Virus record (IMG/VR): IMGVR_UViG_3300008459_000008
Location: 1 to 64,000 of that record
Length of the DNA stretch: 64,000 nt
Strand: one strand, 5' to 3'
From: a virus
Shown here: positions 31,142 through 59,149 of the stretch, piece by piece
How positions within the stretch are numbered: position 1 is the first letter of the stretch
Layout: each line of letters starts with the position of its first letter
Notes under the pieces: generated by a model
What the model saw: only the letters and a program-made list of their open reading frames with translations
Told to the model about the DNA's origin: nothing
Database searches by the model: none
Position numbers and translations under genes: made by a program

Positions 31142-31172
31142 AAAAAAACCCTCCTAATTGGAGGGTTTTTTT
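31142..31172. terminator. Bidirectional intrinsic terminator
   Basis: aaaaaaaccctcc-taatt-ggagggttttttt. Confidence 0.88.
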
Positions 31173-40618: not shown

Positions 40619-40627
40619 TAATTAAAT

Positions 40628-41139: not shown

Positions 41140-42254
41140 CCCTCGTCATATACTCTAGCAATCTCATTAAACTCTTGTAAAACACCATTTTTAATCTTCT
41201 CACTTTCATATTTCTGATTATTAATGTATTGTCTGATCAAATCAGTATATTCAAGTTGAATTGATGGCACAACACCATTATTTAATTCATCATCAGTGAT
41301 GTCATCTATGATAGATTTTACTTCTTCATCATTTTTTTCCAAAACTAAATCATCTATGTAGTCGACGGAAGCAAAGTTTCCAGATTCCAACATCAATTCA
41401 AGTTTCCTCCTTAATTTCCTATTGTTAATTAAAAGGGAATTAGAAATAAAAAGATCTATGTAGTCTTTTGTTGAAACATTTTCAAGTGTTTCAATATCTT
41501 CTTGTGTTCTGATGTATATTTTTTTATACCTTGGGGAAACATTATTTGGTATAAAATTTTCTTCATCTGTCAATGTATCGAGAATAAATATTCCCTTTTG
41601 ATTATTTGTATCATTTCTGTCCATTTCAAAATTATTACCCACAAAAGTAAAGTTTTTAGAAACTTGTAGGATATGTATATGTCCAGAATAAACATTTTTG
41701 TATCCTGAAAATTCCTCAACATCAATTTTATCATTGTTCTTATGTGCAACAGATGTTAAGTGCATCTTAGCACCATTCAAATCAGAGTGACAAAATAGAT
41801 AATCAGCACTTTTGAATTTTTTCAAGACATTAATCTGTTCTTGTTTTTTTTCTACCCACGGTAACATCAAAATTGATTTTCCACAGAAGTCAATCTTTGT
41901 GGGTTCTTCATAAACAGTAATATTTGGAATATATTTGTATAGTTTAACAGTATTTACATCATTAGATGCTTTAGTATATAAATCATGATTTCCTATTAAA
42001 ATATGTATAGGACAAATCTTTGACAATTTTTCAAGTAAATCTTGAGCGTAGTTTAAAATGTTAATAGGCACAACAGAACGATTATCAAATAAATCACCAC
42101 AATGAACGATGATATCATTTTCACTCAGTTCTTTTTGGACAAGAGGTAGTAGAAACTTCTCGAAATATTCTTGATGGACTTTAAACCATTTATCCACTGA
42201 ATTTGGATAACCTAAACCAAGATGTGTATCACCTATAATTAAAATTTTAGACAT
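41127..42254 (-). CDS. gp47: Recombination nuclease, Mre11/SbcD (T4 gp47-like)
   Basis: GDTHLG, GDLFDNR, IGNHD, FCHSD, SGHIH metallophosphoesterase motifs. Confidence 0.93.
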   Translation of the reverse strand: MSKILIIGDTHLGLGYPNSVDKWFKVHQEYFEKFLLPLVQKELSENDIIVHCGDLFDNRSVVPINILNYAQDLLEKLSKICPIHILIGNHDLYTKASNDVNTVKLYKYIPNITVYEEPTKIDFCGKSILMLPWVEKKQEQINVLKKFKSADYLFCHSDLNGAKMHLTSVAHKNNDKIDVEEFSGYKNVYSGHIHILQVSKNFTFVGNNFEMDRNDTNNQKGIFILDTLTDEENFIPNNVSPRYKKIYIRTQEDIETLENVSTKDYIDLFISNSLLINNRKLRRKLELMLESGNFASVDYIDDLVLEKNDEEVKSIIDDITDDELNNGVVPSIQLEYTDLIRQYINNQKYESEKIKNGVLQEFNEIARVYDEGYLE

Positions 42255-42355
42255 ATAACAATTATATGTTGATATGATTAATTGTTATAAAAAACTAATT
42301 TTTACATTTTGTTTTTTGTGAAAACGATATATAAAAAAAAAGAAAAAATTAAGTA

Positions 42356-45300
42356 ATGAAAAACATTTTATTATACCTTAGTTGTTTGTTAATTACATCC
42401 AACTTATTTTCTCAAGTAAAGATGGATGTTTGGAATAAAAATCCAAACACATCTCGTACTATAGCAAAAATAAATCCATCCAAATTACCAGTGTCATTCG
42501 AATCGACTTTACCAGATGGTTCAACAGAAATTTATGATAAATGGAACGTCTCTGACATTGAAGTAGAAACATCAACAAAGAAAAAATATACTTTCAAACC
42601 AAATGCTTATAAAGCAAGAAAAAATTTAAGTATTTTGACATATACTGAAAATGGTTGGGAAGGTATGTATCAATCACCTGATGGTTCATCTTATTCAATG
42701 AATCCCACCAGTGTTACTAAAGATGATACAAGACCACAAGGAACTCTAGGTGGTTGTGAAACGATGATTCCGGCAAATATTACGATAAACAAAATACCAG
42801 AGAGAACTCCACAAACATCAAATTTATTAACAAATACTCAATATTATGACCCTGCTATAACAATAAATAAAAATTTAACAGTGTATGCAGAGGTGACAAA
42901 TGACTTACACGTTTCACTAGGAAATAATTTAACAACAACACAAAACTGGGTCACTAATTTGTTTCTTGCAGTTTCCAATATTTACGCTCAGGAAGGTCTG
43001 ACAGTCACATTGAATAAAATTTATGTCTGGCAGTCTGTTGATCCGTATGGTTATCAAACCACAACAACTTCGTCATGTATCCTAGGGGGTGGGTCCCTTT
43101 ATGGATCAGCATTCTGTACCGGTTTTACTGATAATATTAAAAATAATCTACCAGTCAATCCAAATAACACCACGACTAATGTGACATCTCATTTCAAACA
43201 TCTATTACATGGTAGAGGTTCTTTAGGTGGTATAGCTTGGTTAGGAGGCAACTCTGATGGATACAATCCTGATACTTGGAATGTAGTCGGAACGAATTTA
43301 TCAACCGCAGTGTCAGGTTTCACGAGCACGACAATCCCTTCACAAGCTACCACAGGTTATAACTGGCCAGTATATGTCACCGCACATGAGATGGGACACA
43401 ATTGTGGTTCCTCACACACACAGTTTTGTAGGTGGAGAAATGATCAAGGTGCCTATTTAGGTAGATTAGATAGCTGTTATAAAGGAGAAAATTACAATTC
43501 TACGGGATATTGTACTCAAGAAACTGTAGAACCTTGTCCTGCCAACTGTACTCAAACCACATATCTAACCACTAAACCAAATAATAATGGTACAATAATG
43601 AGTTACTGTCATTTGAATGGTTCTGTAAACTTGTCATCAAGATTTGGTAAATATCCAAGATTTGCTATGAGAAGTTCTGTGGATAGGACCCCATACATAC
43701 TCAATCCAATCTCAACTTTACCAGAAGTCGCGTCCGCAAATGTCACTTCTATAACATCTTTTACAGCTACTTGTGGAGGGAATGTGACATTTGGTGGTGG
43801 TTCAGGTGTAACCGCAAGAGGAGTATGTTGGGCCCCTTACCCAACAGAGCCTACAACCGCCAACTCTAAAACCCTCGATGGTACAGGAACTGGATCATTC
43901 ACTAGTGTTATGACTAATTTGACACCAGCGGTGACTCTTTATGTAAGAGCGTATGCAACTAATTCTGCCGGAACTTCATACGGAGGATTAAGACTTTTCA
44001 CACCAGGTCCGCCAGTACCACCAGTTTTGACAACAGTGCCTATCAATACCGTAGGACAAACAACAGCAAAATCAGGTGGTACAATTTCAAGCGGTGGTGG
44101 GGGAACTATTACTAGAAAAGGTGTTGTTTGGAGTATATTCCCCATACCTGATAATACTACTATAAACTCGGAGATTGGTAATACGAATGATGGTACTGGA
44201 ACTGCGAACTTTACAAGTTCAATAACAGGCCTTACTCTTGGTGTAACTTATTACGTGAGAGCATATGCAGAAAATGAGTATGGTGTCGGTTGGGGTAGTG
44301 AATTAACATTCACAACTAGTACTGCTACTACACCATCATTAACAACCAATTCAGTTACTACATTCACAAATACAACAGCAACTATGGGTGGTAATGTAAC
44401 TGCGTCCGGTGGAGCCTCAGTTTCAAGACGAGGTGTTTGTTATGCGACTACTCAAAATCCCACAATCGCTAATACTGTAGTAAATATAGGTACTGGTACT
44501 GGCACTTTTTCACAAAGTGTGACTGGATTGAGTCAAGGTGTAACCTATTATGTGAGAGCCTTTGCAGAAAACCAAGCTGGTCTTAATTATGGCACTCAAG
44601 TTAGTTTCAAAACATTGACTATCCCATCTGTGTCAACCACCGCAGCTACTAATTTAGCAACAACATCATTTACTACAGGTGGTAATGTAACATCTGCCGG
44701 TGGTGGCAGTCTTACTGTTACTGCTAGAGGTGTTTGTTATTCTACCTCAACTAGTCCGTCTCTGACTAATGGTACTGTGTTATCAATTGGAACCGGAACT
44801 GGCACATTCACAACAAACATCACTGCATTGACACAAGGCGTCACATACTATGTGAGAGCTTATGCAACTAATACTTATGGTACTGCTTATGGAAGTCAAA
44901 TCACTGTCAAGACACTGACTGTACCAACAGTCACTACTACGGCTTCAACAGCTCTGTCTAAGACAGGTTTCACAACTGGTGGTAATGTAACTTCAGCAGG
45001 AGGTGGTACCTTATCAGTCACTGAAAGGGGTATTGTTTATTCAACAACGGTACAAGATCCAACTACATCCAATACAAAGGTTTTAGCAGCAACACCAACA
45101 GGTACGGGATCTTATACAATAAGTTTGACGGGTTTAACACCTGGTACAATTTATTATGTTAGAGCTTATGCAATAAATTCAGTAGGTACTGGTTACGGTT
45201 CTCGTATAACAGTGACCACTCCAAGTGAACCAGTATTATCAACAACTTCGATAACATCTATATCAACTACAACAGCATCATCTGGTGGAACAATTACATC

Positions 45301-47092
45301 AAGTTCGGGATCAACAGTTACTGCTAGGGGGGTTTGTTATTCCACATCTCCAAATCCTACGACCGCAAACACAACCACAAGTAATGGGACTGGAACAGGT
45401 ACATTTACAAGTAGTCTAACTGGACTATCTCCTTCTACTACATATTATGTAAAGGCATACGCAATTAACACCACTGGTACGGGTTATGGTAATGAATTAT
45501 CATTTACTACGACATCTTCTGGATCTTTTCCATCACTAACAACTACTGCAGCAAGTGGTATATCTCAAACTACTGCATCTTCTGGTGGAAATGTGACTGC
45601 TGATGGTGGTTCAACGGTCACCGCAAGAGGAATTTGTTACGCAACCACACAAAATCCAACCCTATCAAATACGGTAGTAAATAGTGGTTCGGGTACTGGT
45701 GTTTTTACAAGTTCATTATCTGGATTGACACCAAACACTACTTATTATATCAGAGCCTTTGCTACAAATTCAAATGGAACAAATTTCGGAACACAAGTTT
45801 CTTTTACGACTTTATCCTCAATTACATTTCCCATTTTAACAACAAATACAGTGACATCCATAACTTCAACATCAGCAACTTCTGGTGGTAATATTACAAG
45901 TGATGGTGGTGCTACTGTCACTGCAAGGGGGGTTTGTTATGCCACAACACAAAATCCAACGACCTCAAATACAGTGATTACAAGTGGTTCAGGTACTGGA
46001 ACATTTTCAGTGTCGATCACTGGTCTTACAAGTGGTGTAACCTATTATGTTAGATCTTATGCTACTAATTCAGCGGGCACAAATTATGGAACCCAACAAT
46101 CTTTTACAACTTTGGTCTTTCCTTCATTATCTACTACTTCCGCGACTAGTGTCACTTCTACAACTGCGACAACCGGAGGTAATGTAACTTCAGATGGTGG
46201 GGCTACAGTAACCGCTAGAGGTGTGTGTTATGCAACAACACAAACCCCAACCCTTTCAAATTCATTCACATCAAATGGTACCGGTGTGGGATCATTTACC
46301 AGTAGTTTAACTGGTCTAACTCAGAATACTACTTACTATGTAAGAGCTTATGCGACTAATTCAGTTGGTACAAATTATGGTAGTCAAATCAGTTTTACGA
46401 CTACTACTGGTGAGACTTTACCTACTGTAACGACTACCGCAGTGACTTCTGTGACTTCGAACAGTGCCTCTTCAGGTGGAAATGTTACAAGTTCTGGTTC
46501 ACAATCTGTAACATCTAGAGGAGTAGTCTGGTCGACCTCAATAGATCCTACAGTGTCATTGACTACAAAAACTGTCAATGGTAGTGGAACAGGTACTTTC
46601 ACTAGTTCAATAACATCACTATCAGCTTCTACTACTTATTATGTAAGAGCTTATGCTACGAGTTCTGTTGGTACTGGTTATGGTAATAATGTTCAATTCA
46701 CAACATCATCATCACCTACAGCATCTTGCACAGTGACTACTTTTGCACCATACCAATTAAATGGTTTTTGGAGATTTAAATGGAATTTGAATTCGAATTG
46801 TAACAGCTACACTGTCACTGTAAGTAGATATAATTATACGAGTTCTTCTGTCCAACCTCCAGTTGGAGCAACACCTGTTGCTACAGGTGCTAGATTGACC
46901 AACTATGTTCCCACGACCAATGAAATTTCTCAAGGATTTATTGACCAACAAATGAATCCCCAACCTGCTACCACTGGATATTGGTACAGTTTTGATGTAA
47001 AATGTAATGCAACTTCTTGTAGTGGTTCAAACACTACTAGATCACCTTACTTCTATGTAGGTACTACTCCAGCATCGACAATCGGTAAATAA
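42356..47092 (+). CDS. Secreted M12B/reprolysin-like zinc metalloprotease with 10 FN3-like repeats (paralog 1)
   Basis: Signal peptide LFS|QV; HEMGHNCGSSH (43385-43417); Met-turn TIMSY; 10 repeats of about 98 aa ending YYVRAYA.N..G..YG; Cys-rich C-terminal domain. Confidence 0.88.
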   Translation: MKNILLYLSCLLITSNLFSQVKMDVWNKNPNTSRTIAKINPSKLPVSFESTLPDGSTEIYDKWNVSDIEVETSTKKKYTFKPNAYKARKNLSILTYTENGWEGMYQSPDGSSYSMNPTSVTKDDTRPQGTLGGCETMIPANITINKIPERTPQTSNLLTNTQYYDPAITINKNLTVYAEVTNDLHVSLGNNLTTTQNWVTNLFLAVSNIYAQEGLTVTLNKIYVWQSVDPYGYQTTTTSSCILGGGSLYGSAFCTGFTDNIKNNLPVNPNNTTTNVTSHFKHLLHGRGSLGGIAWLGGNSDGYNPDTWNVVGTNLSTAVSGFTSTTIPSQATTGYNWPVYVTAHEMGHNCGSSHTQFCRWRNDQGAYLGRLDSCYKGENYNSTGYCTQETVEPCPANCTQTTYLTTKPNNNGTIMSYCHLNGSVNLSSRFGKYPRFAMRSSVDRTPYILNPISTLPEVASANVTSITSFTATCGGNVTFGGGSGVTARGVCWAPYPTEPTTANSKTLDGTGTGSFTSVMTNLTPAVTLYVRAYATNSAGTSYGGLRLFTPGPPVPPVLTTVPINTVGQTTAKSGGTISSGGGGTITRKGVVWSIFPIPDNTTINSEIGNTNDGTGTANFTSSITGLTLGVTYYVRAYAENEYGVGWGSELTFTTSTATTPSLTTNSVTTFTNTTATMGGNVTASGGASVSRRGVCYATTQNPTIANTVVNIGTGTGTFSQSVTGLSQGVTYYVRAFAENQAGLNYGTQVSFKTLTIPSVSTTAATNLATTSFTTGGNVTSAGGGSLTVTARGVCYSTSTSPSLTNGTVLSIGTGTGTFTTNITALTQGVTYYVRAYATNTYGTAYGSQITVKTLTVPTVTTTASTALSKTGFTTGGNVTSAGGGTLSVTERGIVYSTTVQDPTTSNTKVLAATPTGTGSYTISLTGLTPGTIYYVRAYAINSVGTGYGSRITVTTPSEPVLSTTSITSISTTTASSGGTITSSSGSTVTARGVCYSTSPNPTTANTTTSNGTGTGTFTSSLTGLSPSTTYYVKAYAINTTGTGYGNELSFTTTSSGSFPSLTTTAASGISQTTASSGGNVTADGGSTVTARGICYATTQNPTLSNTVVNSGSGTGVFTSSLSGLTPNTTYYIRAFATNSNGTNFGTQVSFTTLSSITFPILTTNTVTSITSTSATSGGNITSDGGATVTARGVCYATTQNPTTSNTVITSGSGTGTFSVSITGLTSGVTYYVRSYATNSAGTNYGTQQSFTTLVFPSLSTTSATSVTSTTATTGGNVTSDGGATVTARGVCYATTQTPTLSNSFTSNGTGVGSFTSSLTGLTQNTTYYVRAYATNSVGTNYGSQISFTTTTGETLPTVTTTAVTSVTSNSASSGGNVTSSGSQSVTSRGVVWSTSIDPTVSLTTKTVNGSGTGTFTSSITSLSASTTYYVRAYATSSVGTGYGNNVQFTTSSSPTASCTVTTFAPYQLNGFWRFKWNLNSNCNSYTVTVSRYNYTSSSVQPPVGATPVATGARLTNYVPTTNEISQGFIDQQMNPQPATTGYWYSFDVKCNATSCSGSNTTRSPYFYVGTTPASTIGK

Positions 47093-47148
47093 GGAATTAT
47101 CCTCAAATAAAATTTGAATATATACAAAAAAAACATATCAAATACAAA

Positions 47149-50100
47149 ATGAAAAAGTTTCTGTTCTTTCTAACAAGTTTGATTTTAACGTTGAATTCGT
47201 TTGGTCAAGTGAAATTGAACGTTTGGGACAAAAATCCAAATGTATCTAAAACAATCAATAATATAAAACCGAATAATTTACCAAAAACATTCGAGTCGTT
47301 GACACCGGATGGTGAAAAAACCATCTATGATAGATGGGAAGTTCCAGCTATAACAGTTGTGTCATCTAAAGGTAAGTCATACACAACAAAACCAGTGGCT
47401 TACAAATCAAGAAATGGATTTGGTGTCTTAACCTATTCCAAAAATGGGTGGCAGGGTTTACATTCTGGTAGGAGTGGTAAATTTTACTCAATGACACCTT
47501 CAAAGGTTAATGAGGACACATCGTCATTGAGATCAGTCGAAGAATATTGTGGAGGTGCAGGTTTACAACCAAGTAGCCAAAATATTGATCAAAAAAAAGA
47601 CACAAAAAAGACTCCGTCGGTCGGTAGATTAACTAATAGTGATTTTTATAATCCATTAGTACCAATCAATAAAACTTGTAGTGTTTATGCAGAAATTGCT
47701 TTTGATCTACATACTGCGTTGGGTGGAAATCTAGCTACAACTGAAGATTGGGTTACGAGACTTTTTCTAGGTATATCACAAATCTATTTGAATGAGGGTA
47801 TAACAATATACTTGAATAAAGTTTATGTTTGGGAAGCGTTAGACCCATATGGATATACCACACAAACAGGTACACAGGATGTAGTTAGAAGTAATGTACT
47901 CAATCTATTCGGTGGAAAAATTTTAAATAATCTTCCAACCAATCCAAATTCAAACTTTAAACATTTACTTACTAATGCTACTTATGGGGGAGTTGCTTAC
48001 TACGGACCATTCACACCATCAGATGGATACACTCCCGCAAGCGATTTATTCGGTCCGACCAGTAGAGTAGGTCTATCTAGTATGAGTAACAAACTAGAGA
48101 TAGCATCAACACCAACAGATTTAAGTGTTTACAACGATAGAAGATGGTGTTTACTTGTAGTTGCTCATGAGTTAGGTCATAATTTTGGTTCAAGACACAC
48201 ACAGTGGTGTGGTTGGAAAAGTGATGTTGGTACACTAATTGGTAGACTAGACTCTTGTACAAATGGTGAAACTTCAAATCCACTAGGACCTAATTGTGGA
48301 GCAACTAGCTACCCATCATATAAACCGACCATAATGAGTTATTGTCAGTTCCATCAGAATGCTCCTGCTTTTTCACAATTTTTATCCAATGGTTTTGGAA
48401 AGTATCCTAGATTTAGTATAAGGACTGGATTAGCCAATTCATCAGACATACCTTATACAAATGCTTCGATACCAACACTTACCACAACCCCAATAGTTAC
48501 CTATACCGCTACAACTGCTACATCGGGTGGTAACATCACAAGTGATGGTGGTGCTAATGTAACCTCGAGAGGGGTGTGTTGGTCAACATCACCAAACCCG
48601 ACAATATCGGGATCAAGAACTCTTGATGGTTCCTTTTCAGGGAGTTTTACTAGTAACATCACAGGTCTTTTAGGTGGAATAACTTATTACGTCAGAGCTT
48701 ATGCAACCAATCAAGCCGGAACTGCTTATGGTAATGAAGTTAGTTTCACTACATCAGTACCCCTTGTACCAACACTATCGTCAACAACCGCCGCAACATC
48801 TATCACCAATAACAGCGCAACATCAGGTGGTAATGTGAGTGCAAATGGTGGTGGTTCAATTACCGCTAGGGGTGTTTGTTGGTCAACTTCAACAACCCCA
48901 ACAATATCAAATTCGAGAACTAATGATGCTGTAGGTACAGGTACAGGCTCTTTCACAAGTAGTTTGACGGGTCTATCAGCTGGTACAACATACTATGTAA
49001 GATCTTACGCAACAAACAGTGCAGGAACGGGTTATGGACCACAGATAACATTCTCAACATTTTCCGCATCTTCAATACTTATAAACACTACTGCTCTTAC
49101 GGGATTAGCTCCCAAAAACGTGACGACGGGTGGAACAATTACTTCAGACGGAGGTTCTGCAGTGACAGCAAGAGGGGTGTGTTGGTCAACAACAAGCCCA
49201 CCAACTATATCGAATAGTAAGGTCAATACTGGAACAGGTACAGGAACGTATACAAGTACGGTTAGTGGATTATCTCCATCTACGACATATTATTTGAGGT
49301 CATTTGCTACAAACTCTAGTGGTACAACATATGGTAATGAACTCTCCTTTACAACCACATCTGTTCCAACATTCATTAATGGTACTCCTAGTTATGTCTC
49401 ACAAACATCTATAAAAACCAATTACACTATAAGTTTTCCAAATCAATCGTTTTCCAGCCATGCTTTGGGTGCTTCAACGACAAACCCACCGGATTCCTAT
49501 AATCTGAATTCATCATCTTATACTTTTAATTCTGTATCAGGAACATACCAATCACTTCTCGGTAGAAAATCGACTTCACAAGGTCTTCAACCTTCAACGA
49601 CATATTTTATTAGACCTATAGCAACAGACATATATGATAATTTCTATTACGGACCAATAACACAAGCTACTACGCTTGCTCCTTCTCTACCTGTCTGTAC
49701 TACGTATGTTGCAACTGAAGTTAGTACCCCGACTACAAATGCATCGACCGCTAAATTGAGTGGTAAAGTTACATCAATAGGTGGGGCTATCACAGAAAGA
49801 GGTTTTTGTTATTCTACAACACAAAATCCAACCACATCAAATAGTAAAGTTACTACAACAACTTGTTCATCGGATGATGATTGTTTATTATCATTTACAA
49901 ACACAGTGGCTAATTTTACTCCTGGTACTACCTACTATGTAAGATCCTACGCGATAAATCCAAGTGGTGTTGGTTATGGGAATCAAGTATCATTCACAAC
50001 ACCGATTTATGTCTATCAAGGACCACCAATAGTCGTTATTGACTCAATCAGAAACATCTCAACTGTTGGTGCTAAACTTTATGGTCGAGTGACAAACAGA

Positions 50101-53100
50101 GGGGGTTCTGATTGTGTATTGAGTAGTGGATGTAGAGGTGTAGTTATAAGTGCAGTCACAAATAGTCCATCGAGTGGATGTGGAGTAGATGCAAACTTTG
50201 ATCCTATATGTTGGTCATTTGTTGAAACTCCAAATGTTCAAAGTATAACAGGTGCTTTTGAAGTGGATTTCCAGGCAGGCAATCAATTGATGAAAGCAAA
50301 TACAACTTATTATGTTAGGGCATACGCCACTAATTTTTTCGCAAATAACCAAAACAATTACGGATACTCCGCAACAAGTACATTTAAAACATTATTAACT
50401 GGAACAACACCCCTACTTTATACCAACACTACTGTGAGTATCACAACCACGAGCGCAACAAGTGGTGGATTTATAACTTCACAGGGTGGTGCAAGTGTCA
50501 CTCAAAAGGGAGTAGTGTGGTCTACATCTCCAAATCCAACCACATCACTTTCTACAAAAACTTCTAATGGAACAGGCACTGCAGCTTATTCAAGTAATAT
50601 GACAGGTCTCACACCTAATACTTTATACTATGTAAGAGCATACGCTGTAAATAGTTTTGGAACATCTTATGGTCCTCAAGTACAATTCACTACAAATGCG
50701 AGTGCCGGACTAGCCACATTAACAACTACATCAGTCACAAATTTATCTACAACATCGGTGACATCAGGTGGTAACATTACAAACAGTGGTGGTACAAATG
50801 TTACTGCAAGAGGCGTATGTTACTCCACATCAACTAACCCAACAATAACTAACGGCACAGTTGTCGCGAGTGGTTCTGGTACAGGATCGTTCACAACAAA
50901 TATCACTGGATTGATTCAAGGTAATACTTATTTTTTAAGGGCTTTTGCTACAAATACTTCCGGTACAAGTTATGGTAATCAAGTACAAATCACTACACTA
51001 ACACTACCATCAATAACCACTACCGTCGCAAGTAATGTAACCAGCACAACAGTAATTACTGGTGGTAATGTAACATCGGATGGTGGTTCGACTATTACGG
51101 AAAGAGGTGTCTGTTATGAAACAACACAGAACCCAACTACAGGAAATTTTAAACTAGTATCAACTGGCACGACAGGTACGTTTACATCAAACATAACTGA
51201 CTTGACACCAGGCACAACTTACTATGTAAGGGCATACGCTATAAATTCTGTAGGAACTCAATACGGAACTCAAATAAGTTTTACTACCACCGCAGCACAA
51301 ACAGTACCCACTGTGACAACAACTAATCCAACATCTATCACAACTAACACGGTAAGTAGTGGTGGTACTGTTAGTTCGGATGGTAATTCCACGGTTTCAT
51401 CAAGAGGTGTTGTTTGGTCAACATCTTCGGGTCCAACAATCAATCTTACAACTAAAACGGTTAATGGTAGTGGAACTGGTAGTTTCACAAGTTCAGTTGG
51501 AGGTCTTTTACCGGGTGTACTTTACTACATAAGAGCTTATGCTACAAATTCAATTGGTACATCTTATGGTTCAGAATTCACATTCACCACTTTAACAACT
51601 ACACCCACATTATCTTCTACCATTACAGCATCAAATATAACTCAGACCTCAGCAATCTCAGGAGGAAACGTTACAAGTGATGGTGGGATAACAATTACTG
51701 AAAGGGGGGTATGTTGGTCAACATCAAGTAATCCGACTGTTAGTCTAAGTACAAAAACAATAGATGGATCTGGTGTTGGTAGTTTTGTTAGCGATCTCAC
51801 AGGATTATCTGCGAGTACTACTTATTATGTTAGAGCTTACGCTACTAATTCAAATGGTACTAGTTATGGAACACAAATATCATTTACTACTTTATCATCA
51901 ACTACGGTTCCTACTGTCACAACCACAACCGCCTCATCAATTACATTAACATCGGCCGTATCAGGTGGTAATGTGACTTCGGACGGAGGTACTGTTGTGA
52001 CTGTGAGGGGGGTAGTTTGGTCTACATCTCCTTCACCGACAGTATCTTTAACAACTAAAACTCAAGATGGTACAGGAATTGGTACGTTTACAAGCTCTAT
52101 GACCGGTTTAACCGCGTCAACAATTTACTATTATAGAGCATATGCGACTAACTCTCAAGGGACATCATATGGTAATCAACTATCATTTACCACCACTGCA
52201 AACTTACCTGTTGTGACAACAACAAACGTAAGTTCCGTCACACTCACAGGTGCTGTTTCTGGTGGTAACGTAACATCAACTGGTGGAGCAACAGTCACAG
52301 CAAGAGGGGTATGTTGGTCAACATCACCTAATCCTACAATATTGAACTCAAAGACAACTGATGGAAGTGGGACTGGTACATTTACAAGTACTATCTCTAA
52401 TTTATCACAAAATACAACCTATTATGTCAGAGCATACGCAACTAACTCATCTGGTACCGCATATGGGACAGAATTACAATTCATCACATCAAACACATCT
52501 TTACCAACTGTTAATACAACATCTGTCACATCTATAGATTTCACAAGTGCTATATCTGGAGGTAATGTGGTATCAGACGGTAATTCAACAGTGACATCGA
52601 GAGGTGTGGTGTGGTCTGAAACACAAAATCCAACCCTTAGTAATTCATTTACAGTAGATGATAATGGTACTGGTACATTTACAAGTAATCTCACAAATTT
52701 GACTGCCGGCGTCACATATTATGTAAGAGCGTATGCAACAAATTCCTTAGGTACATCATATGGAAACCAAGTATCATTCGCAACAATACCTGGTCAAGCA
52801 CCAGAGGTATCAACAAACATTATAAATAACGTCACATCCACTAATGCTGAAGTTGTTTATAGTATAAACTCAATAGGTGGTGGAACATTATCATTAAAAG
52901 GTATTTGTTATTCTACATCTCCGAACCCCACAACATCTAATCAGAAGGTAGAAGAAGTCTGTGCAATTGAGACCCCATGTGAGATCGGTCAATATACAAT
53001 TACTTTCATAAATCCATTGTCTCCAAATGTGACTTATTATGTAAGAGCCTACGCAACAAGTGAATTTGGAACCTCATATGGAGAAGAACTTTCCTTCACA

Positions 53101-54360
53101 ACATTGATTAATTTCCCAACACTCACAACCACATCTATATCTGAAATAACATCAACTACAGCTAGTAGTGGTGGTACTATAGTAGACGTGGGTGGTGGGT
53201 CTATAAGTGCGAAGGGAGTTTGTTGGTCAACTTCATCAAATCCTACACTTAATAATTCATTCACAACTGATGGAAGTGGTCCGAATTTCTTCTCTAGTCA
53301 AATTACAGGATTATTACCTGGTGTGTTATACTATGTAAGATCATACGCCACTAATCAAACTGGTACAAATTATGGAAATCAAGTTACGTTCACTACAATA
53401 TCAGTGTCTGTACCTACACTAACAACAAATAGCGTCACTTCAATTACTAACTCATCTGCTATATCCGGTGGAAATATCACATCAGATGGGGGGTCTACTA
53501 TAACAGCAAGGGGAGTTGTTTATTCCACATCACAAAATCCAACCTTATCAAATAATAGAACGTTTGACGGTTCGGGAATTGGTTCGTTTAGTTCTTCTAT
53601 AACTGGTTTATCACCTGGTGTTACCTATTATGTTAGATCATATGCGACCACATCGGGTGGTACAGGATACGGACAACAAAATATTTTTACAACTTCTGGT
53701 TCAATTCCAACTGTATCTACCACCACAATTACAAACATTAGCTCGTCAGGTGCGACGTCTGGTGGTAATGTAACATCGTCTGGCGGATCTTCAATCACTT
53801 CTAGAGGGGTTGTTTGGTCAACATCTCCAAATCCAACTGTATCTTTATCAACCAAGACATCAAATGGAACAGGAACAGGAATATTTACAAGTACAATAAT
53901 CGGATTATCCCCATCAACACTTTATTATGTTAGATCTTACGCTACAAACAGTACAGGTACTGCATATGGTACAGAGTTAACATTTACAACTTCATTGAGT
54001 GGTGGTGGAAGTTGTGCGATTGGTGGTCTAACAGTTACAAGAGTTAATAATGCTTGGAACTTTACATTTAACATAAATCCAAATTGTACAAGTTATACGG
54101 TGAACGTGTGTAGATATTCAAATACTAACCCAGCAATACCACCAACTGCAGGTCAAACACCAGTAGCATGTGCGGTTAGAAATAACATGACTAGTTATGT
54201 ACCAACTTCTTCGGAAATAAGCGCTGGTGTTATAACAAGAGTGATGAGTCCACCACCAGCCAATACCGGTGTGTGGTACAGTGTTGACGTAACTTGTAAT
54301 GGTACTTGTACAGGTACCAAAACTACTAGGTCTGCATATTTCTATAATCCAATCCCATAA
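47149..54360 (+). CDS. Secreted M12B/reprolysin-like zinc metalloprotease with 18 FN3-like repeats (paralog 2)
   Basis: Signal peptide SFG|QV; HELGHNFGSRH (48166-48198); TIMSY; 18 repeats; same C-terminal domain. Confidence 0.88.
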   Translation: MKKFLFFLTSLILTLNSFGQVKLNVWDKNPNVSKTINNIKPNNLPKTFESLTPDGEKTIYDRWEVPAITVVSSKGKSYTTKPVAYKSRNGFGVLTYSKNGWQGLHSGRSGKFYSMTPSKVNEDTSSLRSVEEYCGGAGLQPSSQNIDQKKDTKKTPSVGRLTNSDFYNPLVPINKTCSVYAEIAFDLHTALGGNLATTEDWVTRLFLGISQIYLNEGITIYLNKVYVWEALDPYGYTTQTGTQDVVRSNVLNLFGGKILNNLPTNPNSNFKHLLTNATYGGVAYYGPFTPSDGYTPASDLFGPTSRVGLSSMSNKLEIASTPTDLSVYNDRRWCLLVVAHELGHNFGSRHTQWCGWKSDVGTLIGRLDSCTNGETSNPLGPNCGATSYPSYKPTIMSYCQFHQNAPAFSQFLSNGFGKYPRFSIRTGLANSSDIPYTNASIPTLTTTPIVTYTATTATSGGNITSDGGANVTSRGVCWSTSPNPTISGSRTLDGSFSGSFTSNITGLLGGITYYVRAYATNQAGTAYGNEVSFTTSVPLVPTLSSTTAATSITNNSATSGGNVSANGGGSITARGVCWSTSTTPTISNSRTNDAVGTGTGSFTSSLTGLSAGTTYYVRSYATNSAGTGYGPQITFSTFSASSILINTTALTGLAPKNVTTGGTITSDGGSAVTARGVCWSTTSPPTISNSKVNTGTGTGTYTSTVSGLSPSTTYYLRSFATNSSGTTYGNELSFTTTSVPTFINGTPSYVSQTSIKTNYTISFPNQSFSSHALGASTTNPPDSYNLNSSSYTFNSVSGTYQSLLGRKSTSQGLQPSTTYFIRPIATDIYDNFYYGPITQATTLAPSLPVCTTYVATEVSTPTTNASTAKLSGKVTSIGGAITERGFCYSTTQNPTTSNSKVTTTTCSSDDDCLLSFTNTVANFTPGTTYYVRSYAINPSGVGYGNQVSFTTPIYVYQGPPIVVIDSIRNISTVGAKLYGRVTNRGGSDCVLSSGCRGVVISAVTNSPSSGCGVDANFDPICWSFVETPNVQSITGAFEVDFQAGNQLMKANTTYYVRAYATNFFANNQNNYGYSATSTFKTLLTGTTPLLYTNTTVSITTTSATSGGFITSQGGASVTQKGVVWSTSPNPTTSLSTKTSNGTGTAAYSSNMTGLTPNTLYYVRAYAVNSFGTSYGPQVQFTTNASAGLATLTTTSVTNLSTTSVTSGGNITNSGGTNVTARGVCYSTSTNPTITNGTVVASGSGTGSFTTNITGLIQGNTYFLRAFATNTSGTSYGNQVQITTLTLPSITTTVASNVTSTTVITGGNVTSDGGSTITERGVCYETTQNPTTGNFKLVSTGTTGTFTSNITDLTPGTTYYVRAYAINSVGTQYGTQISFTTTAAQTVPTVTTTNPTSITTNTVSSGGTVSSDGNSTVSSRGVVWSTSSGPTINLTTKTVNGSGTGSFTSSVGGLLPGVLYYIRAYATNSIGTSYGSEFTFTTLTTTPTLSSTITASNITQTSAISGGNVTSDGGITITERGVCWSTSSNPTVSLSTKTIDGSGVGSFVSDLTGLSASTTYYVRAYATNSNGTSYGTQISFTTLSSTTVPTVTTTTASSITLTSAVSGGNVTSDGGTVVTVRGVVWSTSPSPTVSLTTKTQDGTGIGTFTSSMTGLTASTIYYYRAYATNSQGTSYGNQLSFTTTANLPVVTTTNVSSVTLTGAVSGGNVTSTGGATVTARGVCWSTSPNPTILNSKTTDGSGTGTFTSTISNLSQNTTYYVRAYATNSSGTAYGTELQFITSNTSLPTVNTTSVTSIDFTSAISGGNVVSDGNSTVTSRGVVWSETQNPTLSNSFTVDDNGTGTFTSNLTNLTAGVTYYVRAYATNSLGTSYGNQVSFATIPGQAPEVSTNIINNVTSTNAEVVYSINSIGGGTLSLKGICYSTSPNPTTSNQKVEEVCAIETPCEIGQYTITFINPLSPNVTYYVRAYATSEFGTSYGEELSFTTLINFPTLTTTSISEITSTTASSGGTIVDVGGGSISAKGVCWSTSSNPTLNNSFTTDGSGPNFFSSQITGLLPGVLYYVRSYATNQTGTNYGNQVTFTTISVSVPTLTTNSVTSITNSSAISGGNITSDGGSTITARGVVYSTSQNPTLSNNRTFDGSGIGSFSSSITGLSPGVTYYVRSYATTSGGTGYGQQNIFTTSGSIPTVSTTTITNISSSGATSGGNVTSSGGSSITSRGVVWSTSPNPTVSLSTKTSNGTGTGIFTSTIIGLSPSTLYYVRSYATNSTGTAYGTELTFTTSLSGGGSCAIGGLTVTRVNNAWNFTFNINPNCTSYTVNVCRYSNTNPAIPPTAGQTPVACAVRNNMTSYVPTSSEISAGVITRVMSPPPANTGVWYSVDVTCNGTCTGTKTTRSAYFYNPIP

Positions 54361-54375
54361 AAAAACTAAAATTGA

Positions 54376-57300
54376 ATGAAAAAGTTTCTTCTACTAATTC
54401 TATTGACACTAACTTCCGTTCTGTCCTTTGGGCAGACGGAAGTTGATATTTGGAAAAAATCCAACAAAAAAATATTTTCTCAAAGAAAATTTACATTTCC
54501 AAAAACATTTGTTTCCAAATCACCATCAGGTAAACAATTGACTTACCAACGTGTGGAACATCCATATATCAAGATAGAAACATCTAGTGGTAAGAAATGG
54601 ACAAAGAAACCAATTATTTATCAATCTACTTCAGATTTTGGTGTAATAACATATGACGGTAAAAATTGGAGTGGTATACATACAGAGGATGGATACAATG
54701 TAAGTAACTTGACGAAAGAAAAGGTTACTAATGTCAAAATGGATGCTGAAAAATTCAGTTTTGGTGAAGGAGATGTTTTACTCGCGCCCACAAAATCAAA
54801 TAAAAAGATAGGAAGGTCAATCCAAAACAATCCAAATTTTTATGATCCTTACATCAGAATTAATAAAACTTGTGGAGTTTATGTGGAAGTAACAAATGAT
54901 TTATATAAATTTTGGGGTTCAGATACTGGTAGAGTAACACAGTATGTTACAACTATACTAACAAATGTTATAGCTCTATATGACAGAGAGGGTATAAATG
55001 TCACATTGAATAAAATTTTTGTTTGGGACACACCTGATCCTTATGGAAACCCATTCGATAATACACAGTATCTAAATCAATTTACAGATAACATCAACAA
55101 AAATATACCAACTACACCAGAATCTCATTTTAAACACTTATTACACAATAAGAATTTGGGTGGTATAGCTTGGATAAATGGTGAATCAGATGGATACATC
55201 ACATCTGCAAATCTTGATCCATACTATACCTGTGCGGTCACAGGAATTGGTTCAAATATAGTAGTTAATTCTAATGTCACTTATTCTTGGCCAGTAATGT
55301 GTTTCACACATGAAATGGGACACAATCTTGGTTCAAAACATACTCATTGGTGTGGATGGAAAAATGAATCCAATCAAGCCATAGGTAGAATTGACAGTTG
55401 TTACAGAGGAGAAAGCACAGATGGGCCAGATAATTGCACGTCATCTACTTATACAGTAGTTAAATCAAACAACAGAGGCTCTGTAATGAGTTATTGTCAT
55501 CTGAATGGTGCCATAAGTTTCACAACTGGATTTGGTAGATTACCAAGATATTCAATAAGATCTAATCTAAATGATGCACCAGAGGTGCCATTTGACACAC
55601 CACAAGTTCCAACAGTAACTATTGATACTGGTACTCAAAAAACAGCTACTTCTGTTTTAATGACTGGAAATATTGTAATGACTGGAGAAACTATAATTCA
55701 AGAAAGAGGTTTCGTGTGGACAAATTCACAAATCATAATGCCTACATTGAATTTGACAACTAAAATTGCGGTCGGCTCAGGTAGTGGAACATTTCAATCA
55801 CAAATTACAACATTAACTGCAGGAGGACGTTTTTGGTTTAGGGCATATGCGAAAAATGCTACTGGAGTTTACTATAGTGATACAGTAAGGGTACAATTGG
55901 TCTCAACGTCTGTACCAAGTCTGACGACAAATCCTGTAACTCTAATTACAAATATATCGGCTCAAACTGGTGGCACATACATATCGATTGGTAATATTTC
56001 AATTCAAGAAAGAGGTATAGTGTACAGCACTTCCAATCAACTTCCTACCGTAGATGACACTAAAGTGATCACACCATCACCAAATAACACAAACTTCGTT
56101 CAGAATTTGACGGGTCTAACTCCCAACACCACTTATTACATAAGGGCTTTTGCTAGAAATAGTCCGTCAATTTTTTCTTACGGAAATGTACAAACTTTTC
56201 AAACTTTACCAAATGAGTCGGTATCTTTTGGAGTACCTTTAGCTACCGTCAATAGTAGTACACAAATAACCCCTAGTGTTTTTATCACATCTACTGGTAA
56301 TGGTGGGGTCATATCTGAAAGAGGTTTCTACATAGGAACTACACCAAATCCTGAAAATAACATACTTAATAAAAGAGTTGCGGTTTTGGGACAAGCCACT
56401 ACTATGGCATTAGCTATAATAAATCTAACACCCAATACACTTTATTATATCAAAGGTTTTGCGACCACTCAATTTGGTACTTTTTATACACCCGAATTCA
56501 CATCCACTACACTTAGGAGTATACTAGTGATGGATGAAGTTAGTGGAATAGAAGCTACTAAAGCTACGTTCAAATATACTATTGGTCCAACTACATCTAT
56601 CATACCATCATCAGGTGTTTTGTTATCAACCAACATAACACCAACTAGAGCAAACAGTCAGTTCTTTTTTCAATCGACATATGTTGGACAAGGACAAGGC
56701 ACAATTGTTGGACAAGACCTACTTCCAAATACGACTTACTATGCTAGAGGGGTAATACCATTTACTTCTGGTGATTTCTTTTCAACTAATATACTACAGT
56801 TTCAAACTACGGGAGTTGTTGGTACTCCATCGGTTAGTACTTTGGGATCACCCACAAAAACAAAAAATTCGATTGTAGTTAGAGGTGAAGTTGTGTCAAC
56901 TGGATCATCACCTGTATTTAACAGGGGAATTTGTTATTCAACCGCACCAAATCCTACTATAAATAATTCAGTTATTGTATCAGGTCAGGGGATTGGTCAA
57001 TATATTGTAACTATAAACAATTTAGTACCTAGTACAATATATTATATTAGAGCGTATGCTACCAACAAGTCCGGCACTTCTTATGGTTCAGAAATTAATA
57101 TTTCAACCAGTGGTGATATCCCAACAATCATAACAAACTCAATCAACAACATTTCATTAACCACTGCTAATGGAGGTGGTGAAATAACTCTTTCGGGTGG
57201 ACGTGTTGTTACATCTAGGGGTGTAATTTGGTCAACCAATCCCAATCCAACAATAAATTTGTCTACAAAAACAGTAGATGGTAGCGGAATTGGCATATTC

Positions 57301-58392
57301 ACAAGTGCAATCACTGGATTGGTACAGAATACGAAATATTATGTCAGAGCTTATGCCATAAATGATAATGGGGTTGGATATGGTAATGAAATTAATTTCA
57401 CTACTTTGCCTAGTCCAACTACAGCAAATGTAATAACAAATATTGTCACAAATATTTTACCAACATCAGCGACATCCGGTGGTAATGTTACTTATGATGG
57501 TGGAACACCTGTGGTATCCAAGGGGATTTGTTGGTCGACTTCTCAGAACCCAACAATCGACCTTACCACAAAAACTATGGACGGTAGTGGATTGGGTCCC
57601 TTCGTTAGTCAGATATCCAACTTGACCCTCGGCAACACTTACTATGTAAGGGCTTACGCTGTTAATTCTACTGGAACTAGTTATGGTGTACAGTATTCAT
57701 TTACAACTTCGTTAGGCATCCCAATCGTTTTGACTAATCCGGTAAGTGGGATTACAATAACATCAGCGAGTGTTGGAGGGAATGTAACTTCTTCTGGAAA
57801 TGCACCTGTAACTCAGAGAGGAATTTGTTGGTCAATAAATCAGAACCCAACAACAAGTGATAATATAGTACCAAGTGGAAACGGAACTGGAGTTTTTTCC
57901 GGAAATATATTAGGACTATCCTCCTCCACAACATATTTTATCAGAGCTTATGCTACAAACTCTTTGGGAACTTCCTATGGATCACAGATTTCATTTACCA
58001 CTTCACCACAATCTGGAGGTACTTGTCAAATATCTGGACTAACATCCTATCTAAATCAAACGAACAAATGGGAATTTAATTACAATATAAATTTAAAATG
58101 TGCTACATATTCTGTAAATGTGTGTAGGTATAATTACACAGATCCTAATAGTCAACCACCTTCAAATTTACAACCAACAAGTTGTGGAGTAAGAAATAGC
58201 ATGAATGCTTATGTACCAACAATCCAAGAAACAAATAATGGGTACATCCAAAAAGAAATGATACCTCAACCGACGGCTTCGACAAAATCTGGTTTTGGTG
58301 GATATTGGTACAGCATAGATGTCAGATGTTCATCACAAAATTGTTTGGGATCAAATTTGACTAAATACTATTTTTATGTACCAGGTATGTAA
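54376..58392 (+). CDS. Secreted M12B/reprolysin-like zinc metalloprotease with 8 FN3-like repeats (paralog 3)
   Basis: Signal peptide SFG|QT; HEMGHNLGSKH (55309-55341); SVMSY; 8 repeats; same C-terminal domain. Confidence 0.88.
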   Translation: MKKFLLLILLTLTSVLSFGQTEVDIWKKSNKKIFSQRKFTFPKTFVSKSPSGKQLTYQRVEHPYIKIETSSGKKWTKKPIIYQSTSDFGVITYDGKNWSGIHTEDGYNVSNLTKEKVTNVKMDAEKFSFGEGDVLLAPTKSNKKIGRSIQNNPNFYDPYIRINKTCGVYVEVTNDLYKFWGSDTGRVTQYVTTILTNVIALYDREGINVTLNKIFVWDTPDPYGNPFDNTQYLNQFTDNINKNIPTTPESHFKHLLHNKNLGGIAWINGESDGYITSANLDPYYTCAVTGIGSNIVVNSNVTYSWPVMCFTHEMGHNLGSKHTHWCGWKNESNQAIGRIDSCYRGESTDGPDNCTSSTYTVVKSNNRGSVMSYCHLNGAISFTTGFGRLPRYSIRSNLNDAPEVPFDTPQVPTVTIDTGTQKTATSVLMTGNIVMTGETIIQERGFVWTNSQIIMPTLNLTTKIAVGSGSGTFQSQITTLTAGGRFWFRAYAKNATGVYYSDTVRVQLVSTSVPSLTTNPVTLITNISAQTGGTYISIGNISIQERGIVYSTSNQLPTVDDTKVITPSPNNTNFVQNLTGLTPNTTYYIRAFARNSPSIFSYGNVQTFQTLPNESVSFGVPLATVNSSTQITPSVFITSTGNGGVISERGFYIGTTPNPENNILNKRVAVLGQATTMALAIINLTPNTLYYIKGFATTQFGTFYTPEFTSTTLRSILVMDEVSGIEATKATFKYTIGPTTSIIPSSGVLLSTNITPTRANSQFFFQSTYVGQGQGTIVGQDLLPNTTYYARGVIPFTSGDFFSTNILQFQTTGVVGTPSVSTLGSPTKTKNSIVVRGEVVSTGSSPVFNRGICYSTAPNPTINNSVIVSGQGIGQYIVTINNLVPSTIYYIRAYATNKSGTSYGSEINISTSGDIPTIITNSINNISLTTANGGGEITLSGGRVVTSRGVIWSTNPNPTINLSTKTVDGSGIGIFTSAITGLVQNTKYYVRAYAINDNGVGYGNEINFTTLPSPTTANVITNIVTNILPTSATSGGNVTYDGGTPVVSKGICWSTSQNPTIDLTTKTMDGSGLGPFVSQISNLTLGNTYYVRAYAVNSTGTSYGVQYSFTTSLGIPIVLTNPVSGITITSASVGGNVTSSGNAPVTQRGICWSINQNPTTSDNIVPSGNGTGVFSGNILGLSSSTTYFIRAYATNSLGTSYGSQISFTTSPQSGGTCQISGLTSYLNQTNKWEFNYNINLKCATYSVNVCRYNYTDPNSQPPSNLQPTSCGVRNSMNAYVPTIQETNNGYIQKEMIPQPTASTKSGFGGYWYSIDVRCSSQNCLGSNLTKYYFYVPGM

Positions 58393-58494
58393 TAAAAGTT
58401 ATTTTATCAAAAGAATATATAAATAGATTAATAGGAATAAAAACCGAAATAATATATAATTAAACAAAAAGATTTAAAAAAATATAAATAAGTT

Positions 58495-59118
58495 ATGGCA
58501 CTTCCACATTTTACCCAACTTCAAATGACCGGTTCACCTGGTGGACCTGGGTCTAGACCACAAGAACCAGTATATTTGAACCTGTTTGAGTGTACATTTG
58601 TCCTTCCAACAATTGTTGCAGCTCGTTATGGAACAGATGCTGGACCGGGTCTACTTTTACAACAAGCTACAAAAATAACTTTTGACGTAACTCCATCATT
58701 GGAATCAGTTGAACAGAAATTCAAATATTCTGGTAGAGCTTTTATGAAAACCCCAACAAAAACCACTACAGACTTAACTCTTGGATTCAATGTTAACGTT
58801 AATGATACTGGTAGTATGGAGACTTGGAACATTCTTAAATCATGGTATGATTTAGTCTGGAACTCTCAAAACGGATATTTGCACTACAAAGCAGATATTG
58901 TTGGAACTATCATCGTTAACCAACATGATAAAAAGGGGGTTGTTTTAAGGAGATTAACCTTTCAGAACTGTCAAATCAAATCAATTGGTAATCCAGCCTT
59001 AACTTGGGATGGTGGTGAAATTTGGAATTTTGAATCAGCATTTATAGCTGATTACTGGATTGATGAATACATCGATCAGAACTTCACAATTGTGCCGCCA
59101 CTTGTATCAGGATATTAA
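58495..59118 (+). CDS. gp19: Tail tube protein, T4 gp19-like
   Basis: EPVYLNLFE.TF..P, W..LKSWYDLVWN...G, YKAD, IVNQHDKKG...R.L, F.ADYW; multiple late motifs upstream. Confidence 0.82.
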   Translation: MALPHFTQLQMTGSPGGPGSRPQEPVYLNLFECTFVLPTIVAARYGTDAGPGLLLQQATKITFDVTPSLESVEQKFKYSGRAFMKTPTKTTTDLTLGFNVNVNDTGSMETWNILKSWYDLVWNSQNGYLHYKADIVGTIIVNQHDKKGVVLRRLTFQNCQIKSIGNPALTWDGGEIWNFESAFIADYWIDEYIDQNFTIVPPLVSGY

Positions 59119-59120
59119 TG

Positions 59121-59149
59121 AAAAAAGGACCTTAAAAAGGTCCTTTTTT
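59121..59149. terminator. Bidirectional intrinsic terminator
   Basis: aaaaaaggacctt-aaa-aaggtcctttttt. Confidence 0.85.

Follow-up and report, generated by a model that had tools for sequence, protein, structure and literature searches.

Positions 42356-58392 of a viral DNA stretch of 64,000 nucleotides (hereafter the window) hold three adjacent genes for very large metalloproteases. Each protein has an intact catalytic site, a predicted signal peptide, a stalk of FN3-like repeats and a shared cysteine-rich C-terminal domain (CTD). The window corresponds to positions 1 to 64,000 of the IMG/VR record IMGVR_UViG_3300008459_000008, which is 106,239 bp long and has a CheckV completeness estimate of 42%. 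The reading favoured here, which on balance is considered probable together with its export mechanism, is that the carrier is a Mahaphage-related huge phage of freshwater Bacteroidota and that the block is a hypervariable accessory island whose three paralogues diverged long ago and belong to a family of exported metzincin zymogens centred on phages. According to this mechanism, the protease genes would be transcribed late, with the virion genes, and the host Sec system would export the products, with signal peptidase I (SPI) cleaving ahead of Gln20. Folding and disulfide formation would take place in the periplasm, without incorporation into virions in the cytoplasm. Release would most likely occur by lysis, and the enzymes may attack proteins outside the cytoplasm, in the host envelope or around it. 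The roles suggested in the initial annotation, among them the digestion of biofilm or S-layer, the decoration of virions, the destruction of receptors and the deterrence of grazers, are candidate functions. The proposed role of the FN3 chain is that of a spacer, and the CTD would serve for targeting or anchoring, as a module distinct from the sorting tag of the type IX secretion system (T9SS).

Domain anatomy and class of the proteases

The three genes are tandem paralogues on the plus strand, and their coordinates and lengths agree exactly with the initial annotation of the window, which was made from its letters and open reading frames (ORFs). The boundaries given here derive from the ORFs and from hidden Markov model (HMM) anatomy, with an AlphaFold2 model of residues 1-441 for gene 3. 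Gene 1 (42356-47092, +; 1578 amino acids, aa) encodes a predicted signal peptide at aa 1-19 with Gln20 at the +1 position, an N-terminal domain (N-domain) at aa 21-167, a catalytic domain at aa 168-455, 10 FN3-like repeats at aa 456-1451 and the CTD at aa 1452-1578 (46709-47089). Its zinc site, HEMGHNCGSSH, lies at 43385-43417 (aa 344) and its Met-turn at 43595-43609 (aa 414). Gene 2 (47149-54360, +; 2403 aa) has the same signal peptide length and Gln20, an N-domain at aa 21-170, a catalytic domain at aa 171-440, 18 FN3-like repeats (2-3 of them degenerate) at aa 441-2283 and the CTD at aa 2284-2403 (53998-54357); the zinc site HELGHNFGSRH is found at 48166-48198 (aa 340) and the Met-turn at 48331-48345 (aa 395). 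Gene 3 (54376-58392, +; 1338 aa) again begins with a predicted signal peptide at aa 1-19 and Gln20, followed by an N-domain at aa 21-160, a catalytic domain at aa 161-410, 8 FN3-like repeats at aa 411-1210 and the CTD at aa 1211-1338 (58006-58389). The zinc site in this case is HEMGHNLGSKH at 55309-55341 (aa 312), with a Met-turn at 55483-55497 (aa 370).

Over their first 440 aa the paralogues are only 38-39% identical, and the three copies of the shared, Cys-rich CTD are 49-52% mutually identical. The annotated repeat numbers are borne out by anchor motifs, which recur at a spacing of 97-106 aa and give 10, 18 and 8 repeats. A repeat HMM detects 10, 16-17 and 7-8 in genes 1-3, with degenerate copies filling the remaining gaps. 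The three proteins score 44.4, 44.7 and 35.0 bits with the Pfam model fn3 (PF00041), for which the cut-off is 25. In NCBIfam, the repeats match NF049889 over positions 35-131, the FN3-like N-terminal domain of the BT0360 arabinanase model. Tandem Repeats Finder detects no ~300-nucleotide (nt) repeat in the stalks at the DNA level. The repeats are thus too diverged for a DNA repeat finder, which indicates that the stalks are old, and the idea of a recent FN3 expansion was dropped for this reason.

The catalytic domains are recognized by the reprolysin models of Pfam. The first protein matches Reprolysin_3 with 31.2 bits (cut-off 22.4), the second Reprolysin_5 with 41.6 bits (cut-off 27), and the third both Reprolysin_5 (57.4 bits against 27) and Reprolysin PF01421 (23.4 against 20.8). 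Reprolysin and FN3 matches above the Pfam cut-offs are therefore present in all three proteins. Each carries the HExxHxxGxxH motif of the metzincin clan, with its catalytic Glu, and a Met-turn of the form (I/V)MSYC some 55-70 residues downstream, as had been annotated. In an alignment of 10 family members, H312, E313, G315, H316 and H322 (numbered as in the third protein) are invariant, as are S372, Y373 and C374 of the Met-turn, and M371 is nearly so. Four cysteines of the catalytic domain are likewise invariant.

In adamalysins, an Asp follows immediately after the third zinc-binding His (HExxHxxGxxHD), and pappalysins have Thr or Val at this position. This M12B family-specific Asp is found in none of the three proteins. 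Each has Thr instead, and T323 is invariant in the family alignment. The enzymes are for this reason described as adamalysin-fold metzincins and not as members of M12B. The earlier label “Reprolysin/M12B” is retained for the fold and the Pfam match, and is given up for the family assignment.

In the AlphaFold2 model of gene 3 (aa 1-441), residues 2-18 form a helix and residues 44-121 an all-beta domain modelled with confidence. A disordered linker (123-150) leads to the catalytic domain, which occupies 164-400. The mean predicted local distance difference test score (pLDDT) is 71, with values mostly of 80-95 in the catalytic core and below 50 in the linker. The best Foldseek matches of this model are snake-venom metalloproteinases, the ADAM17 zymogen and profragilysin (E 2e-11 to 4e-9). 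The adamalysin-type fold of snake-venom metalloproteinases and ADAMs is matched at E 2e-11 to 1e-9 with target-normalised template modelling (TM) scores of 0.70-0.78, and a phmmer search of the same residues against PDB sequences gave no match. The likeness to the M12B enzymes (adamalysins, ADAMs and snake-venom metalloproteinases) and to the zymogens of ADAM17 and Bacteroides fragilis fragilysin lies in the fold, in the zinc site and Met-turn, and in a disulfide-rich catalytic domain that follows a pro-region. The window proteins differ from the adamalysins in being 10-22% identical to the listed structural matches, in having Thr for Asp and in lacking a disintegrin domain. As the beta-rich N-domain occupies the prodomain position in the model, it would be a removable prodomain and could keep the enzyme latent. 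The linker of the first two proteins, not that of the third, contains a candidate switch cysteine, Cys134; a D-E motif stands there in five of the seven other aligned members.

Family distribution, phage origin and turnover of the island

A search of 1.84 billion representatives returned approximately 2000 Bacteroidota-type catalytic domains at E <1e-10. The N-domain and the CTD are present only in the top ~25-40 of these, with the CTD always C-terminal. The family core comprises the signal peptide, N-domain, protease and CTD, to which 0-18 repeats are added; forms of 536-581 aa have no repeat. Among chromosomal homologues, which exist in Bacteroidota as previously stated (Epilithonimonas, Chryseobacterium, Emticicia and Cytophagaceae), those inspected end in a canonical T9SS type A tail (PNP...K-I-I-K). 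The CTD occurs in one of 79 loci from species-representative bacterial genomes, a Cytophagaceae metagenome-assembled genome (MAG), where it lies among housekeeping genes. In a quick IQ-TREE maximum-likelihood tree, this copy groups with the small-phage forms.

The same tree, a protease-domain phylogeny against the chromosomal homologues, places all members with FN3 repeats, N-domain and CTD in one clade (SH-aLRT 98). Each window paralogue belongs to a different subclade and has closer relatives among metagenomic sequences, which indicates that the three predate this phage.

Relatives in IMG/VR were found with an alignment-based query; a single-protein query found nothing. The short forms belong to small phages, on 33-45 kb contigs with DNA polymerase, primase and terminase genes. 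PHROG scans found no phage lysis genes beside them, and a link of the short forms to a lysis cassette is thus unsupported. Long forms occur in large phages, one of which (G002, 178 kb) has two. A 91-kb record (IMG/VR 3300008459_000012; L013/G003) has five adjacent CTD-bearing genes, matched by the CTD at E 1e-8 to 1e-35, with a full protease-domain match in one. Together with the array of L136/L137, it resembles the window in its CTD, in Gln-ending signal peptides, in tandem arrangement, in being carried by a large phage and in having at least one protease-bearing member. These arrays differ from the window in giving no match to the FN3-repeat HMM, in that most members are without a protease domain, and in a different backbone; the CTD-bearing L013/L136 proteins that lack the protease domain have no Pfam family. 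None of these IMG/VR phages shares neighbouring genes with the window, where all three genes are complete proteases on FN3 stalks within a gp47/tube island. The initial annotation had presented the array as a system without a described counterpart. No literature description of this protease family was found, but the array is not unique, since the family recurs in other uncultured phages (33-178 kb contigs) and once on a bacterial chromosome.

The carrier is recognizable as a phage from its genes for the major capsid protein, prohead protease, portal, clamp loader, large terminase, sheath (1306 aa), SbcD/gp47 and tail tube. The large terminase is 64% identical to those of the uncultured phages LR756502 (642 kb) and LR745206 (635 kb). 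In a study of huge phages, the largest genomes are placed in the “Mahaphage” clade, and Bacteroidetes hosts are predicted for all genomes of at least 634 kb (PMC7162821). The island is bounded on the left by an SbcD/gp47-like recombination nuclease gene (41127-42254, -; phrog_100, E 1.5e-58), 50% identical to LR756502 and LR745206, and on the right by the tail tube gene (58495-59118, +; phrog_45, E 5.7e-13), which is 61-67% identical to LR745206/LR756502 and 90-93% to two closer relatives, L124 and L126. These PHROG matches bear out the flanks as first annotated.

The overall GC content of the block (35-40% against ~30-33% in the flanks) and its host-like architecture might suggest an assembly chimera or a recently captured, functionless piece of host DNA, an explanation that is now close to refuted. 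The GC content at the third codon position (GC3) of the protease genes is 0.215-0.229, at the mean of the other phage genes (0.235, standard deviation 0.033). The extra GC is confined to codon position 2 and follows from a Thr/Ser/Gly-rich amino-acid composition. Syntenic arrays with the same flanks are found in the independent assemblies L124-L127, and the exact gene 2 protein occurs on three public contigs, the longest of 111,236 bp. All three reading frames, of up to 7.2 kb, are intact, and each paralogue has orthologues elsewhere. The stretch 40500-48500 is found in freshwater or lake metagenomes of at least 15 studies, and depth is broadly similar over block and flanks in runs X2 and X3. 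Because GC3 equals the phage mean and the occurrence spans so many studies, the block is considered native phage DNA, and the claim that it is phage-borne stands. At the junctions, the outcome is divided: the left one (gp47/gene 1) is spanned by a contig from another study, and the right one is not bridged by any listed piece. Logan contigs over 40800-59800 are short, with none spanning the whole block. Their repeat-to-repeat joints have sides of only 21-41 nt, may be graph artefacts and are not read as copy-number variants.

The site itself is highly variable between relatives. In LR745206 and LR756502, gp47 and tube are divergent neighbours, 158 bp and 810 bp apart respectively, and the block is absent. 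A tblastn search of the protease region against 50,697 GenBank phage records, these two included, found no homologue, and megablast of 40000-60000 against GenBank phages gave no match. In L124 (tube 93% identical), the island holds three genes with at least 8, 16 and 7 detected repeats, and in L126 (gp47 64%, tube 90% identical) two genes with 12 and 8 repeats. L127 (gp47 90% identical) has a 711-aa form with N-domain, protease and CTD, a different insert of 170 aa and no detected FN3 repeat. The variation in copy number that had been anticipated is thus present, with three genes, two genes or one form without detected repeats. The protease orthologues in these island relatives are mosaic and 45-81% identical, against 90-93% for the tube gene. 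Gene 2 and its L124 counterpart, for example, are 48% identical in the protease and 76% in the CTD. Gene number, stalk length and sequence change rapidly while the site stays fixed, which suggests that the target of the island is engaged in an arms race, as host surface proteins might be.

A few features of the relatives are recorded separately. The L127 insert (L127:4788-5270) takes the place of the FN3 repeats, and a duplicated linker containing Cys flanks it. Inspection and weak Atlas leads (0.86) suggest a sugar-binding module of the F5/8 type C or CBM32 kind, an assignment that is unconfirmed and has no PDB match. In L126, a 280-aa ORF between gp47 and the first protease (L126:2974-3813, +) contains LLWSDGYID and is LAGLIDADG homing-endonuclease-like by motif alone. 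In lake metagenome run X8, a contig (depth 3.46) joins 58477 to 42332 with 39 other letters between; this could be another gene order in a relative or a graph artefact over similar promoter regions. Over 40800-59800, the depth of X8 is 22-36 in the gp47/tube flanks and 0-10 in the array, with summed contig depths being a weak measure. This suggests that the sample holds abundant relatives with the same core and a different or missing island.

Predicted export, late-type signals and the C-terminal domain

The N-termini of all three proteins have a K-rich start and a hydrophobic core of 12-15 residues, followed by S/G and then Gln20, which is invariant across 10 family members. In Bacteroidetes, the “Q-rule” describes Gln at the +1 position of signal peptidase I substrates (PMC5837995). 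The invariant Gln20 fits this rule and favours the reading of the proteins as Sec/SPI substrates. All inspected relatives with an intact N-terminus have a signal-peptide-like start ending in Gln, and residues 2-18 are helical in the gene 3 model. A rule-based scan finds such N-termini in only 7 of 94 ORFs of the phage, none of the seven being a recognized virion protein. The Sec signal peptides that had been annotated are upheld by this pattern. The CTD contributes a second indication, as two of its cysteines are both present in seven alignment rows and both missing in four. This paired presence and absence is the signature of a disulfide and points to folding outside the cytoplasm. Export signals and conserved, co-varying cysteines both fit an oxidising compartment, and the proteases are probably exported from the infected cell.

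Other ORFs of the record with signal-peptide-like N-termini ending in Gln are found at 13442-13948 of the window (-, 168 aa) and, in the full record (G000), at 103605-104078 (-, L204, 157 aa) and 100353-102605 (-, L203, 750 aa). All three are without a Pfam family. ATATATA lies 31 nt upstream of L203.

Late-type motifs precede the first two protease genes at the positions first annotated. The motif GATATATA (42326-42333, +) has an ATATATA core that begins 29 nt before the gene 1 start codon, and in AATATATA (47117-47124, +) the core begins 31 nt before that of gene 2. Two more ATATATA motifs, at 58415 and 58452 (+), precede the tail tube gene. The window contains 43 copies of ATATATA against 28.6 expected, nearly all directly upstream of a start codon and in the correct orientation. 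The element, often within wAATATATAaa, is found 21-43 nt upstream of the capsid, prohead protease, portal, terminase, sheath and tube genes, the large unknown genes and proteases 1 and 2 (for example at 1670, 3838, 6527, 16877, 19282, 22884, 37904 and 58452). It is missing upstream of gp47 (67 nt inspected) and of the clamp loader. ATATATA is thus a candidate late promoter element, reminiscent of the T4 late promoter TATAAATA. No motif precedes gene 3, which follows gene 2 at a distance of 15 nt, and the two are probably co-transcribed. In a scan of 41000-59500, the gaps that separate the protease genes from one another and from the tube gene contained no terminator; the longest stem, of 13 bp, belongs to a terminator after the tube gene (59121-59149, +). 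The annotated late-type signals are in this way supported by a motif and spacing shared with the capsid, portal, terminase, sheath and tube genes and by the continuity of array and tube, and the proteases may be co-expressed late with the virion genes.

The same arrangement could be taken to mean that the proteases are part of the virion. The CTD would dock to the capsid or tail, perhaps once lysis has mixed the contents of periplasm and cytoplasm, and the stalked enzymes would clear a protein layer at adsorption, as tailspike depolymerases do with polysaccharide. The island adjoins the tail tube gene, has late motifs with no terminator before tube and is hypervariable in the manner of receptor-binding genes. 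The CTD hardly occurs outside phages, and Ig/FN3 domains are reportedly common on virion proteins. A virion role is nevertheless considered decidedly unlikely, as invariant +1 Gln signal peptides and disulfide cysteines are unfit for cytoplasmic assembly and no recognized virion protein of the phage has such an N-terminus. The closest large relatives do without the block, which makes it dispensable for the virion, and in small phages the short forms sit among replication genes.

A digestive role would make the genes auxiliary ones that enlarge the secreted protease repertoire of the host and supply amino acids during a long infection. The catalytic domain is indeed related to the ~2000 secreted Bacteroidota proteases described above, and many host-augmenting genes are known in huge phages (PMC7162821). 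With a late-type motif and no recognized secretion tag, however, delivery would come too late or not reach the outside of the cell. Arms-race-like divergence and variation in stalk length are unexpected for a digestive enzyme, and the phage-specific N-domain and CTD separate the family from the host enzymes. Such scavenging is regarded as very unlikely.

The CTD is central to the question of where the proteases would act. It is defined by a profile as a family of ~120 aa at the extreme C-terminus of signal-peptide proteins, and it is found nowhere else in the 106-kb record beyond the three protease genes. The profile matches the three window proteins and 25-30 metagenomic relatives, as well as all five records searched (four phage, one MAG) at E 1e-8 to 1e-47, with 1-5 copies per phage record against a single copy in the bacterial genome of 3.9 Mb. 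At E up to 10, the three CTDs have no match in Pfam or NCBIfam, and in particular no similarity to the T9SS type A, B or C models (PF18962/TIGR04183, TIGR04131 and NF033708). As a positive control, Por_Secre_tail PF18962 matches another protein of the phage, L205, at E 3.8e-8. The CTD model (pLDDT 90) is an FN3-like sandwich (best Z 9.8). Foldseek against PDB found nothing at E <=0.001, and VIA-align returned only generic FN3 domains and no specific relative. In the ESM Atlas, the CTD leads to unnamed Bacteroidota clusters at 0.90, with weak Ig_J/fn3 leads. The Ig-like fold class is common to the CTD and to T9SS C-terminal domains and is not diagnostic.

L205 (G000:C1:72107-73042, +; 311 aa) is encoded 8 kb past the window end. 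It has a signal-peptide-like N-terminus and a canonical T9SS type A tag at aa 245-302. It appears from this tag that the phage sends at least one protein through the host T9SS, and a canonical cargo tag encoded by the phage implies that the host has such a system.

It has also been considered that the proteases are displayed on the infected cell, with the CTD as a non-canonical sorting or anchoring signal of the T9SS or another system. Shaving of receptors or adhesins before lysis could then exclude superinfecting phages and spare the progeny losses on debris. The CTD always stands at the extreme C-terminus, exactly where the homologues carry their T9SS tag, and the order of enzyme, stalk and C-terminal tag is that of surface-anchored T9SS cargo. 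Its Ig/FN3-like beta-sandwich is the fold class of solved T9SS C-terminal domains (PMC11285876), and a host T9SS is implied by L205. In Flavobacterium, phage resistance has been mapped to genes for gliding and the T9SS (bioRxiv 10.1101/2020.10.02.323337), and surface-localised phage proteins have been proposed to change susceptibility to other phages (PMC7162821). Against this stand the lack of similarity to the three T9SS model types and the fact that the same phage puts a canonical tag on another protein. Moreover, a host sorting signal would be expected on many host proteins, but the one bacterial genome that has the CTD holds a single copy. Surface display is therefore held to be unlikely.

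A bolder proposal sees in the CTD a phage-private address label, and thus a new route by which periplasm-matured enzymes would be attached to the infected-cell surface before lysis or to released virions after it. On this view, the stalked, surface-cutting enzymes of the gp47/tube island would form an exchangeable cassette that determines host range or keeps competitors out. This is a speculative idea that is unlikely to hold.

Several points weigh against the favoured reading of enzymes that mature in the periplasm and are released by lysis. The signal peptides were called by rule and inspection, and no RNA run is among the matches listed for the stretch. The prodomain role of the N-domain is drawn from its position and from a weak structural alignment (TM 0.3-0.47, root-mean-square deviation 9-12 Å), and Cys134 is found in genes 1 and 2 only. 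Without a recognized outer-membrane route, proteins with up to 18 FN3 repeats would need to wait in the periplasm, and a stalk at full extension would exceed the width of the periplasm. The adjoining tail genes and a variability like that of tail fibres also fit a virion-associated role. Finally, T9SS tags unlike types A and B exist, such as that of F. johnsoniae ChiA, and a cryptic T9SS signal is thus possible.

Comparable systems and minor observations

Among known enzymes, the T9SS-secreted M12-like metallopeptidases of Bacteroidota (Epilithonimonas, Chryseobacterium, Emticicia and Cytophagaceae/Saprospiraceae MAGs) are similar to the window proteins in having a Sec signal peptide, a homologous catalytic domain (27-42% identical), a large multidomain build and a C-terminal beta-sandwich. 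The inspected ones carry a type A T9SS tag, whereas the window proteins carry the unrelated Cys-rich CTD. The latter also add a family-specific N-domain, 8-18 FN3-like repeats and encoding by a phage. This amounts to a natural experiment, in which the same protease core is joined to either the host T9SS tag or the phage domain. The CTD would be a candidate for a novel kind of targeting module, in a phylum that as a rule uses the T9SS tag.

Late secretory proenzymes are also known from baculoviruses, whose v-cathepsin/chitinase and enhancin are kept in the cell until death and then break host barriers and free or spread virions. The parallel is one of analogy only, as these are eukaryotic viruses with unrelated enzyme families and no homology to the window proteases. 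Known products of tailed phages include polysaccharide depolymerases, released or carried, and small exported proteins for exclusion and lysis. The literature gave no description of exported phage proteases that are large and stalked.

Two cases from Bacteroidota are nearer in setting. Cytophagalysin CPL1 of Cytophaga (PMC11674741) is likewise a large (137 kDa), multi-segment, secreted metzincin. It is chromosomal and belongs to another metzincin family (pappalysin M43B); Peptidase_M43 is not among the Pfam matches of the window. In Porphyromonas gingivalis phages, predicted Sec/SPI products with +1 Gln are taken as an adaptation to host export (PMC10367356). The prophages in question (tRNA-Pro insertion) carry genes of unknown function, with no protease, stalk or shared CTD reported in that study.

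A huge phage thus commits 16 kb to three stalked proteases, and related arrays recur in uncultured Bacteroidota phages. The site changes fast between close relatives, which identifies it as a point of contact with the host or with competitors. If active, the enzymes would represent a new class of phage exoenzyme, relevant to the ways in which large freshwater phages cope with cell surfaces, sheaths or aggregates rich in protein.

Two further genes of the window are recorded here. The tail sheath gene (22918-26838, +) encodes 1306 aa, of which sheath families match aa 949-1297 only, and the ~950 N-terminal residues are unexplained. An ORF of 2236 aa (31171-37881, -) is without a PHROG or Pfam match and has the late-type motif 29 nt upstream.

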